Positions 9,095 through 14,601 of a stretch of 64,000 bases of DNA are shown here, in pieces; positions within the stretch are counted from its first letter, which is position 1; each line of letters starts with the position of its first letter. Location: assembly GCF_056712565.1 (NCBI RefSeq), contig NZ_CM160072.1; one strand, written 5' to 3'. The notes beneath the pieces are model-generated. The model did no database searches. It was not told the DNA's origin and saw only the letters and a list, made by a program, of their open reading frames with translations. The position numbers and the translations under genes were made by a program.

Positions 9095-9171
<77 letters not shown>

Positions 9172-9228
9172 TTTAGTCCCGGCGCTTGAGCTGCGGTGGT
9201 AGTAATACCGCGTAACAAGATTTGTAGT

Positions 9229-9305
9229 GGTGGCTATAGCTCAGTTGGTAGAGCCCTGGATTGTGATTCCAGTTGTCGTGGGTTCGAATCCCATTAGCCA
9301 CCCCA
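9229..9305 (+). tRNA. hisR: tRNA-His (anticodon GUG)
   Basis: Extra 5' G characteristic of tRNA-His; anticodon loop TTGTGAT; ends CCA. Confidence 0.9.
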
Positions 9306-9325
9306 TTATTAGAAGTTGTGACAAT

Positions 9326-9412
9326 GCGAAGGTGGCGGAATTGGTAGACGCGCTAGCTTCAGGTGTTAGTGTCCTTACGGACGTGGGGGTTCAAGTCCCC
9401 CCCCTCGCACCA
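9326..9412 (+). tRNA. leuT: tRNA-Leu (anticodon CAG)
   Basis: 87 nt with long variable arm; anticodon CAG; ends CCA. Confidence 0.9.
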
Positions 9413-9454
9413 CGACTTTAAAGAATTGAACTAAAAATTCAAAAAGCAGTATTT

Positions 9455-9531
9455 CGGCGAGTAGCGCAGCTTGGTAGCGCAACTGGTTTGGGACCAGTGG
9501 GTCGGAGGTTCGAATCCTCTCTCGCCGACCA
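9455..9531 (+). tRNA. proM: tRNA-Pro (anticodon UGG)
   Basis: 77 nt; anticodon loop TTTGGGA; ends CCA. Confidence 0.9.
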
Positions 9532-9537
9532 ATTTTG

Positions 9538-9566
9538 AACCCCGCTTCGGCGGGGTTTTTTGTTTT
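9538..9566 (+). terminator. rho-independent terminator of tRNA operon
   Basis: aaccccgc-ttcg-gcggggtt hairpin followed by a T-run. Confidence 0.8.
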
Positions 9567-9677
9567 CTGTGCATTTCGTCACTTTCCCTTCGCAATAAAC
9601 GCCCGTAATAACGTATTGCGCCACGGTATGATTTCGCCCTTAACTTATTGAAGGATGACTTCAGGCAAGGAGCGACC

Positions 9678-11070: not shown

Positions 11071-12726
11071 TTAGTCAGATTTAATCTGCGCGCGTGGTGG
11101 ATATTTTTTCAGGATCTCCATATACGCGTGCATTTCGGTCTGTAGCGGTACACCCATCGGAATATGGCGCACGCCGATAGAGTCGCTTTCCTGCGGATCG
11201 GTGTACAGGTTAAACACCGACGATCCCGCCGTTTGCATTACTGTGCCGGTGAATCCACCCTGATATCCGCTCTGGGTATAAGCGTAAGGTTGCTGAATCA
11301 GGACGTGATACTTGAACTCATCCATACGCACAGCAGAAAGTTTACCGTTGAGGAAGTAGTGCTCGGCCTTACGGTTAGACTGACCATTTGTTCCCAGGAA
11401 GAAAGATGTCTGGTCCACACCATCGATAAAGGTGGTTTTCGGTACTAAATTCGCTACTTTCGCCCCAGGATGCCCCGCCAGATCCAGCGCCGTAGGGAAG
11501 AGATCCGCCAGATCGACAATGCCGTCAGATTTACGCGGTTGGATCATGCCTTTCCAGTAAACGAAGGTTGGCACACGAACGCCGCCTTCCCATGTAGAAC
11601 CTTTCGCACCGCGGAACGGCGTGCGACCGTGCGGCGGAACTTCGGCTTCCGGACCGTTATCAGAGGTGAACACAATCAGCGTGTTATCAAGCTGACCGTT
11701 TTTCTCCAGTGCTTTATACAGATTGGCGAAGATATCGTTCATCTCCACCATGCAGTCGCCGTAAGAGGTGCGCGCCGGAGAGCTACCCGCATATTTGGCG
11801 TTCGGGTAGTTATCGAAGTGACAGCCGCGAGTGCCGTAATAGAGGAAGAAAGGCTTATCACTCTTCGCCATCTTGTCGAGGAACTTAACGCCATATTCCA
11901 TCCAGCGTTGATCCAGGTCTTCCATATATTTCGGCGTAATGTCGGCAATGGCTTCCTGTTCACCGCCGCGCACGGCATGAACGTCATCTTTGCTGAACGG
12001 CAGTTTTTGGATGTATTCAGAACGAGCCGGGCTCAGGGCGACTTCCGGGTTGACATGAACATCACGCCATTCGGTATACATATCGGACACCGAGTTAAAG
12101 CCGCGGAAATCATCAAAGCCAACGTTCTGCGGCTGCGACTCTTTGTTTTCCCCCATATGCCATTTCCCGATAGCCTGGGTGACGTAGCCCTGATCGTGCA
12201 GCAACTGCGGCAGCGTGGTTAACCCTTGCAGACCGCCCGGTTGCCCGTACATTGGCGGCATCAGAATGCCGTGGTGGATGGAGTATTGTCCGGTGAGAAT
12301 CGTGGCGCGGGTTGGGGAAGAACTCGGTTGAGAATACGCCGAAGTTAAAATCAGCCCCTGGCTGGCAACGGCGTCGATATCTGGTGTAGGGTTACCCACC
12401 GCCACGCCGCCGCCGTTAAAGCCAACGTCCATCCAGCCCACATCATCCAGCAAGAAAACAACCACGTTCGGTTTCTTACCGGTTTTTTTCTCAAGTTCCG
12501 CCAGTTTCTGCTGGGTTTCTTTGTCTTGTGCAGGATGCTGCATCACCGGCATCATGTTGTCGGCAATAGTGGTCGCCGGTTTAACCAGATACTGGTTTGG
12601 GTGATCGTATCCGGCAAAGCCTTTGCGTGCGGTGGCGGTTGACGGGGTATCTGCTGCGCTGGCTATGAGAGGAAGAGCTGCGGCGACAGCAACAACAAGA
12701 AGTTTGGGTGAAAACGAAAATTCCAT
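11071..12726 (-). CDS. aslA: arylsulfatase-family protein
   Basis: 551 aa with signal peptide; sulfatase-family sequence; paired with aslB. Confidence 0.85.
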
Positions 12727-13150
12727 GCAAAATGCTCCGGTTTCATGTCGTCAAAATGATGACGTAATTAAGCATTGATAATTGAGATCCCTCTCCCTGA
12801 CAGGATGATTGCATAAATAATAGTGATAAAAATAAATTATTTATTTATCCAGAAAATGAATTGAAAAATCAGGAGAGCATTTTCAATCCTACCTCTGGCG
12901 CAGGTGATATGTAAGGCGGTGATGTTATATCGCGTTGATTATTGATGCTGTTTTTAGTTTTAACGGCAATTAATATATATGTTATTAATTGAATGACTTT
13001 TATTATTCATTATATATATGTGTAGAATTGTGCGCAGGAGAAATATTCACTCAGGAAGTTATTACTCAGGAAGCAAAGAGGATTACAGAATTATCTCATA
13101 ACAAGTGTTAAGGGATGTTATTTCCCGGTTCTCTGTGGCATAATAAACGA

Positions 13151-13357
13151 GTAGATGCTCATTCCATCTCTTATGTTCGCCTTAGTGCCTCATAAACTCC
13201 GGAATGACGCAGAGCCGTTTACGGTGCTTATCGTCCACTGACAGATGTCGCTTATGCCTCATCAGACACCATGGACACAACGTTGAGTGAAGCACCCACT
13301 TGTTGTCATACAGACCTGTTTTAACGCCTGCTCCGTAATAAGAGCAGGCGTTTTTTT
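13151..13357 (+). ncRNA. glmZ: small RNA GlmZ
   Basis: Sequence recognised as GlmZ (begins GTAGATGCTCATTCC), ending in intrinsic terminator aacgcctgctc-cgtaataa-gagcaggcgtttttttt; aslA-hemY intergenic location; TGgCATAAT extended -10 just upstream. Confidence 0.85.
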
Positions 13358-13404
13358 ATATATCAGAAAGGCCCCGGAGGTGCTTGCCTCCGGGTGAGAA
13401 AGAG

Positions 13405-14601
13405 CTACTGTGGCGGGTTGTTCTGCAACGTTAACATCAAACCGTCGCGACGCATCGCTGCGGCTTCTTCCGGCTTGTGCAGTCTGTCCAGCGCGTCGGC
13501 AAGCCATGCGTAATCGTAGGCGTCCGGACGTTGTTTCAGCGCTGCGCGGAAGGCGAGCGATGCTTCCTGCCATTCTCCGTGTTTCATCAGCGACTGACCC
13601 AGTGTGCTCCACAACAGCGGGCGATCGCCCACGTTTTTGATCTGTTGGCGCAGCACTTTTTCCAGCTGTTCCGGGTTATTGGTTTTCAGACGCGGGATCG
13701 GCAGCAGCAGGCGATCGTCATACTGGCGTTTCAGGCCATCGATGATAATTTGCTGGGCAGTATCATGATCGTCACACTCAATAAGATGTTCCGCCATTGC
13801 CACCTGCAAGGCCACCTGATGACGCGTTTTCCGGCTTTGGTTTTTCCACCAGTTACGCAAACCTTCACTACCGTTATCGGCACGCGCCTGATCCATCAGG
13901 CCAATCCATGCCTGTTGTTCCAGCATTGCACGATGTTCTTCATCACCAACATGGGCTTTCGCCATTGATGGGATGATATCCAGCAGCGAACTCCATGCAC
14001 CAGTGCGGATATACGCCTGTTCCGCCAGACGTAATACTTCCGGATGGCGTGGCGTAACTTCCAGCAGCTTATCCACGCCGTGACGTGCTGCATGGTTTTC
14101 ATTACGGGCCAGTTGCAGACGTACACGGGTGATTTCTACCGGAATGGTGTCATTGCCGGCCAGCTCCGCTGCGCGTTCCAGATGTTGGTTGGCGCGTGCT
14201 TCATCACCACGTTGTTGCGCGGCTTCGGCTGCCAGTAGATAGTTCACCACCGGTTGTTCAGCGTGATCGGCATTTTTCGCCATCAGCTTTTCAACTTGCT
14301 GATAATCGCCTTCCGCCAGTTTCAGCAGCGCCTGTTCGGTCTGCTTACGTGCACGGCGACGCTTACGTCCGACAAACCACCCACGGGTGTGCGCGCCTGT
14401 GCGGAAGATTCGCCGCAGTAGCCACTCAATGGCAAACAGCACTACCATCGCCAGAATCAAAATAATCGCGAGGCCCGTGACGCTGGTTTCAATATTGTAG
14501 TTGTCGGTCTGGATCAGCACGTAACCCTGATGGCCGGCAATCATCGGGCCAACCACGATCCCCGCAATCAGCAACACAAAGAGCAATAACACTTTTAGCA
14601 T
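13405..14601 (-). CDS. hemY: HemY (TPR-containing heme biosynthesis-associated protein)
   Basis: 398 aa; N-terminal TM segments; hemCDXY operon synteny. Confidence 0.85.
   Translation of the reverse strand: MLKVLLLFVLLIAGIVVGPMIAGHQGYVLIQTDNYNIETSVTGLAIILILAMVVLFAIEWLLRRIFRTGAHTRGWFVGRKRRRARKQTEQALLKLAEGDYQQVEKLMAKNADHAEQPVVNYLLAAEAAQQRGDEARANQHLERAAELAGNDTIPVEITRVRLQLARNENHAARHGVDKLLEVTPRHPEVLRLAEQAYIRTGAWSSLLDIIPSMAKAHVGDEEHRAMLEQQAWIGLMDQARADNGSEGLRNWWKNQSRKTRHQVALQVAMAEHLIECDDHDTAQQIIIDGLKRQYDDRLLLPIPRLKTNNPEQLEKVLRQQIKNVGDRPLLWSTLGQSLMKHGEWQEASLAFRAALKQRPDAYDYAWLADALDRLHKPEEAAAMRRDGLMLTLQNNPPQ

Follow-up and report, generated by a model that had tools for sequence, protein, structure and literature searches.

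The 64,000-nt stretch of DNA analysed here (the window; NCBI RefSeq assembly GCF_056712565.1, contig NZ_CM160072.1) carries the gene for the small RNA GlmZ at 13151..13357 on the + strand. On either side lie genes of the - strand, aslA for the arylsulfatase AslA (11071-12726) and hemY for HemY (13405-14601; NCBIfam equivalog, 830 bits), and these two flanking reading frames bear out the original prediction, made from the sequence alone, that glmZ sits in the aslA-hemY intergenic region. The end of hemY is 47 bp downstream of glmZ on the opposite strand, and hemX and hemD come after hemY in the strain's record. The conserved synteny in which glmZ is convergent with the hemCDXY cluster, described previously (PMC3045617), is present in the window. 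Together with its flanks, glmZ takes up a spacer of 678 bp (12727-13404), the first 424 bp of which (12727-13150) separate it from aslA. Upstream of aslB, Rfam identifies a cluster of four tRNA genes on the + strand (9095-9528), which we take, by position on the K-12 map, to be argX-hisR-leuT-proM.

The assignment of a 207-nt primary transcript to 13151..13357 draws on the match to Rfam family RF00083, identity to the K-12 gene, conservation and the predicted fold. In a cmscan search at gathering thresholds, GlmZ_SraJ (RF00083, Rfam 15) was the best Rfam match in the window, running from 13151 to 13357 (+) and matching the predicted coordinates to the base. The covariance-model search that had been proposed as a check, with the absence of a hit as the refuting outcome, was strongly positive: at 218.4 bits (E 3.4e-56), the match exceeds the gathering score of 60, and it spans positions 1-214 of the 214-position model without truncation. 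At the same thresholds, the four tRNAs at 9095-9528 were the only other Rfam matches in the whole window. By alignment, all 207 of 207 nt are identical to glmZ of K-12 MG1655 extended to its terminator, and the length is that of the published primary transcript (PMC4152352). The entire aslA-hemY spacer is 100% identical to that of E. coli DSM 30083 (= ATCC 11775). We regard it as almost certain that 13151-13357 (+) is glmZ of E. coli ATCC 11775, encoding the Hfq-dependent sRNA GlmZ with a sigma70 promoter, and nothing was found that speaks against this reading. What the locus holds is the GlmZ gene as already known, not a variant, and intact as had been claimed, and biologically it adds nothing to published work; its usual location and its letter-for-letter identity to the laboratory-strain copy make this an ordinary though correct finding.

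The significance of the locus is limited to annotation. As had been pointed out, protein-only annotation would miss the gene, and the 678 bp between aslA and hemY would look empty. The RefSeq (PGAP) record of the type strain ATCC 11775, NZ_CP033092.2, has no feature between aslA and hemY and hence lacks glmZ, and a glmZ feature at this locus is absent from all 22 RefSeq records among the matches listed. In K-12 (NC_000913.3), glmZ is annotated at 3986432-3986603, a 172-nt feature that ends before the terminator hairpin and leaves out 35 of the 207 nt delimited by the terminator. The gene product has a key role in activating glmS post-transcriptionally, and hence in the synthesis of cell-envelope precursors.

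Conservation within the species is close to universal. Of 5426 complete E. coli genomes, 5425 have a match to the aslA-hemY spacer and 5424 carry GlmZ itself at an identity of at least 99%. In most of these genomes the spacer as a whole is just 95-99% identical, and the GlmZ RNA is therefore under tighter constraint than its surroundings. A departure was observed in E. coli O9:H10 Res13-Lact-PEB21-38-A (NZ_CP062851.1), where the match starts at GlmZ nt 7; as judged from this alignment, the glmZ promoter and first 6 nt appear to be missing or displaced.

Transcription of glmZ is predicted to start from a sigma70 promoter immediately upstream of the gene. The sigma70-like extended -10 element of the original prediction, TGGCATAAT (TGgCATAAT; 13136..13144, + strand), was read from the sequence and is present and correctly placed, in agreement with a comparison against 68 other glmZ promoters and with published work (PMC3045617); it is kept in K-12, in Escherichia albertii (L009) and in a divergent Escherichia (L070). 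Relative to +1 at G13151, the TG falls at -15/-14 and the hexamer CATAAT, with 5/6 matches to TATAAT, at -12 to -7, with the start site 7 nt downstream. A weak -35 element, ATGTTA (13115..13120, + strand; 3/6 matches to TTGACA), was found by a spacing scan at an 18-nt spacer, the sole spacing between 15 and 19 nt that gives three -35 matches. We infer that this is the -35 element described in K-12, which has 'three bases matching the consensus' and whose mutation drastically lowered expression (PMC3045617). Mutation of the K-12 -10 element abolished expression and sequence upstream of -40 was dispensable, and Gopel et al. (2011) concluded that K-12 glmZ has a single constitutive sigma70 promoter (PMC3045617). 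That study assigns function to the -35 and -10 elements and does not use the term 'extended -10', so that the TG at -15/-14 is to be read as a sequence observation. With its threshold of at least 4/6 matches in the -35 element, a generic sigma70 scan passed over this promoter, which was recognized by manual inspection and with the help of published work.

A single position from -40 to +32 distinguishes the window from K-12: at -23 (13128), in the promoter spacer, the window has G and K-12 has A. Further substitutions relative to K-12 are scattered upstream in the intergenic region, in sequence that published deletions show to be dispensable (PMC3045617). The window groups with E. albertii and the divergent Escherichia in having ATGTTA, an 18-nt spacer and TGgCATAAT in common, and ATGTTA is conserved in both of these despite variable spacer sequence; all three lack sigma54 and GlrR elements. 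The spacer sequence varies in E. albertii and the divergent Escherichia also, with its length constant at 18 nt. Some 75-100 nt upstream of glmZ, at 13051-13077, there is a direct repeat (ACTCAGGAAG-ttatt-ACTCAGGAAG) that is kept in K-12. The region that holds it is dispensable for glmZ expression according to the published K-12 deletions (PMC3045617), and the repeat could be part of aslA regulation.

One alternative to a promoter of this kind is that glmZ has retained the sigma54/GlrR control known from Salmonella or Yersinia, by way of a degenerate -24/-12 element. The window does hold GG at 13127-13128 (-24/-23) and GC at 13138-13139 (-13/-12), the GG being created by the G at -23, which is lineage-specific by comparison with the A of K-12; however, the spacing from GG to GC is one base short of the sigma54 consensus. 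In the 40 nt upstream of glmZ, no match to TGGCAC-N5-TTGCW with up to three mismatches was found on the + strand. The best in-range 16-mer has five of the 11 specified bases wrong and is out of register, and five mismatches is the commonest score of shuffled upstream sequence, i.e. chance level. This position-restricted scan, for which 68 homologous promoters served as positive controls, replaced a whole-window scan with up to three mismatches that was uninformative (315 matches against 348 expected). Sigma54 promoters need an enhancer-binding activator, but the 424-bp aslA-glmZ spacer (12727-13150) holds no GlrR site (TGTCN10GACA) with up to two mismatches. In K-12, moreover, GlrR does not bind the glmZ fragment from -424 to +32, to which the window is ~96% identical over that stretch, and glmZ expression is unaffected when glrR or rpoN is deleted (PMC3045617). 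We consider continued sigma54 control very improbable. The original prediction had likewise seen no convincing sigma54 -24/-12 element, a view that agrees with the contrast to 68 relatives and with the published K-12 work (PMC3045617).

Relatives were surveyed with a GlmZ-specific pattern scan in one genome per species, which gave at least 120 loci, with ~40 chance matches in unrelated phyla; a locus was kept only if the RNA downstream contained GTTGAGTG, which removed the chance loci. Among the loci listed, 71 further GlmZ loci remained, 68 of them preceded by 300 nt or more of sequence. Salmonella and Y. pseudotuberculosis were not among the loci listed, and Citrobacter, Enterobacter and other Yersinia species served as stand-ins. 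Membership of RF00083 was confirmed at 187-219 bits for 16 loci, including all 13 without a sigma54 element. In other Enterobacterales, TGGCAC-N5-TGCA (up to two mismatches) stands exactly at the expected position in 55 of the 68 glmZ loci listed. At least two GlrR sites with up to one mismatch accompany it in 52 of these 55 sigma54-type loci listed, typically near -150, -214 and -246.

Outside Escherichia, glmZ genes that lack a good sigma54 element and keep TG-n-(A/C/G)ATAAT were observed in some Citrobacter, Superficieibacter, Pseudocitrobacter, Kluyvera, Pluralibacter and Phytobacter. The eleven loci without a good sigma54 element (L007, L010, L041, L055, L063, L076, L077, L094, L113, L122 and L123) for the most part also lack GlrR sites. 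With several non-Escherichia loci in this state, sigma54 control seems to have been lost more than once.

The gene order upstream of glmZ may record how the Escherichia promoter region arose. Many other Enterobacterales have the four-tRNA cluster conserved next to glmZ on its upstream side. A distance of 300-500 bp separates proM from glmZ in Enterobacter, Citrobacter and Yersinia (L011, L096 and L068), and the intervening spacer holds GlrR sites, whereas in the window the 3.6-kb aslB-aslA segment stands between proM and glmZ. Compared over 9529-9569 and 13140-13160, the window resembles the spacers of these relatives for the first 41 nt after proM (to 9569) and again from ~11 nt before the start of glmZ. 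In relatives, the proM-glmZ spacer contains three GlrR sites, IHF sites and the -24 element. From these alignments, it can be proposed tentatively, and with slightly more doubt than confidence, that aslB-aslA replaced the proM-glmZ spacer of ~290 bp and left an unregulated, sigma70-only promoter built on the ancestral overlapping extended -10 element. If this replacement did occur, one insertion uncoupled GlmZ synthesis from envelope signalling by QseE/QseF (GlrK/GlrR). Such a reading concerns evolutionary history and implies no new function; its outcome, a sigma70-only promoter with a variable upstream region, was already described by Gopel et al. (PMC3045617).

The GlmZ transcript is predicted to fold into two stem-loops, followed by a single-stranded linker and a terminator hairpin. 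The minimum free energy of the GlmZ fold is -60.8 kcal/mol, with z = -3.3 against shuffled sequences (ViennaRNA). A 5' stem-loop (SL1) occupies GlmZ nt 1-66 (13151..13216, + strand) according to the Rfam structure line, and its helix core is found in both the minimum free energy and centroid folds. The central stem-loop (SL2), GGUGCUU...AAGCACC, is placed by the Rfam structure line at nt 73-146 (13223..13296, + strand) and corresponds to the element bound by RapZ (PMC4152352). The Rfam structure line and the fold leave a single-stranded linker at nt ~147-172 (~13297-13322, + strand). A Rho-independent terminator follows at nt 173-207 (13323..13357, + strand), where the terminator scan, the Rfam structure line and both folds place the hairpin that had been predicted within the 207 nt of GlmZ. 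It consists of an 11-bp stem (13323-13333 with 13342-13352; 7 G-C pairs), an 8-nt loop and a run of TTTTTTT. Between this terminator and the stop codon of hemY, at 13372-13397, there is another G+C-rich hairpin, CCCCGGAGG...CCTCCGGG. Read on the - strand, it is probably the hemY terminator, although it has a poor T-run and was not called by the terminator scan.

The linker holds the predicted pairing site for glmS at GlmZ nt 150-169 (UUGUUGUC...ACCUGU; 13300..13319, + strand), and glmU-glmS with an intact leader is present in the same genome record. When GlmZ nt 146-175 was paired by RNAduplex with positions -70 to +3 of the same-strain glmS (L003), nt 150-157 and 164-169/170 were predicted to form 8+7 = 15 bp with glmS -40 to -22 at -19.2 kcal/mol. 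Shuffled linkers reached -19.2 kcal/mol or better in 82 of 2000 cases, which makes the duplex energy alone modestly unusual. A whole-molecule duplex of full-length GlmZ with the entire glmU-glmS spacer was worse than that of shuffles and uninformative. The predicted complementarity of the linker is coincident with the published GlmZ target site on glmS, which extends from -41 to -19 and has 15 pairing nt (PMC4152352). RapZ-directed RNase E cleavage shortens the 207-nt primary transcript of GlmZ to ~151 nt, and the pairing site is lost (PMC4152352).

The pairing site also bears on whether the locus could encode the paralogue GlmY or a GlmY-like decoy of RapZ. Rfam places GlmY and GlmZ in the same clan (CL00011), the RNAs have two 5' stem-loops in common, and a lower-scoring overlapping match of the same clan is suppressed in the Rfam scan. 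Nevertheless, GlmZ_SraJ won the clan competition at full length with 218.4 bits, the locus adjoins hemY and not glrK, and the linker has the 15 glmS-complementary nt that GlmY lacks (PMC4152352). Identity to K-12 glmZ, together with the glmS pairing site, rules out the GlmY reading, whose probability we put close to nil. Equally negligible is the notion that the region is mainly hemY or aslA 3' UTR, terminator or regulatory DNA, or codes for a small protein, with the RNA match incidental: hemY does end 47 bp downstream on the opposite strand, the GlmZ terminator could be bidirectional and short open reading frames of 26-37 aa lie inside the region, but a match of E 3e-56 over the full RF00083 model cannot be incidental, hemY has a hairpin of its own at about 13372-13397, and experiments in K-12 have demonstrated the transcript (PMC3045617, PMC4152352). 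No open reading frame inside 13151-13357 exceeds 37 aa, and nothing about the short ones, such as a ribosome-binding site or conservation of length, suggests coding, and a small protein was rejected on the size of these frames.

With the locus read as glmZ, its mechanism can be inferred from K-12, where the RNA is identical and the promoter has one base different (-23) between -40 and +32. The expression of K-12 GlmZ, its binding to RapZ and Hfq, its cleavage by RNase E at ~nt 151 and its activation of glmS are known (PMC4152352). By analogy, glmZ in this strain would be transcribed constitutively from the single sigma70 promoter, and full-length GlmZ would pair, with Hfq, to the 5' UTR of glmS. 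Pairing would open the hairpin that hides the glmS ribosome-binding site, so that glmS is activated and stabilized. When glucosamine-6-phosphate is plentiful, RapZ bound to the central stem-loop would recruit RNase E, which would cut GlmZ at ~nt 151 and remove the pairing site. Under scarcity of glucosamine-6-phosphate, the decoy GlmY would be expected to sequester RapZ, allowing full-length GlmZ to accumulate.

Among known systems, the closest is GlmZ of K-12 itself (SraJ/RyiA, b4456; RF00083), with which the window agrees in the 207-nt sequence, the location between aslA and hemY, the orientation, the terminator, the glmS pairing site and the -35 and extended -10 elements. The RapZ decoy GlmY (RF00128) is of the same clan and has the same two 5' stem-loops, the part recognized by RapZ (PMC4152352). 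Unlike GlmZ, it is without the glmS-complementary linker, adjoins glrK-glrR and has overlapping sigma54/sigma70 promoters in E. coli (PMC3045617, PMC4152352). The glmZ genes of other Enterobacterales encode a homologous RNA (187-219 bits) with the same start, GTAGATGCTCAT, as in the window, and differ in their promoters: those of Salmonella, Enterobacter and Citrobacter have overlapping sigma54 and sigma70 promoters, and those of Yersinia and Serratia have sigma54 promoters only. Promoters of the Enterobacter type carry a TG-n-(A/C)ATAAT extended -10 element at the same position as the window. What sets the sigma54-type relatives apart is a -24/-12 element (TGGCAC-N5-TGCA) accompanied by two or three GlrR sites; the window has neither.
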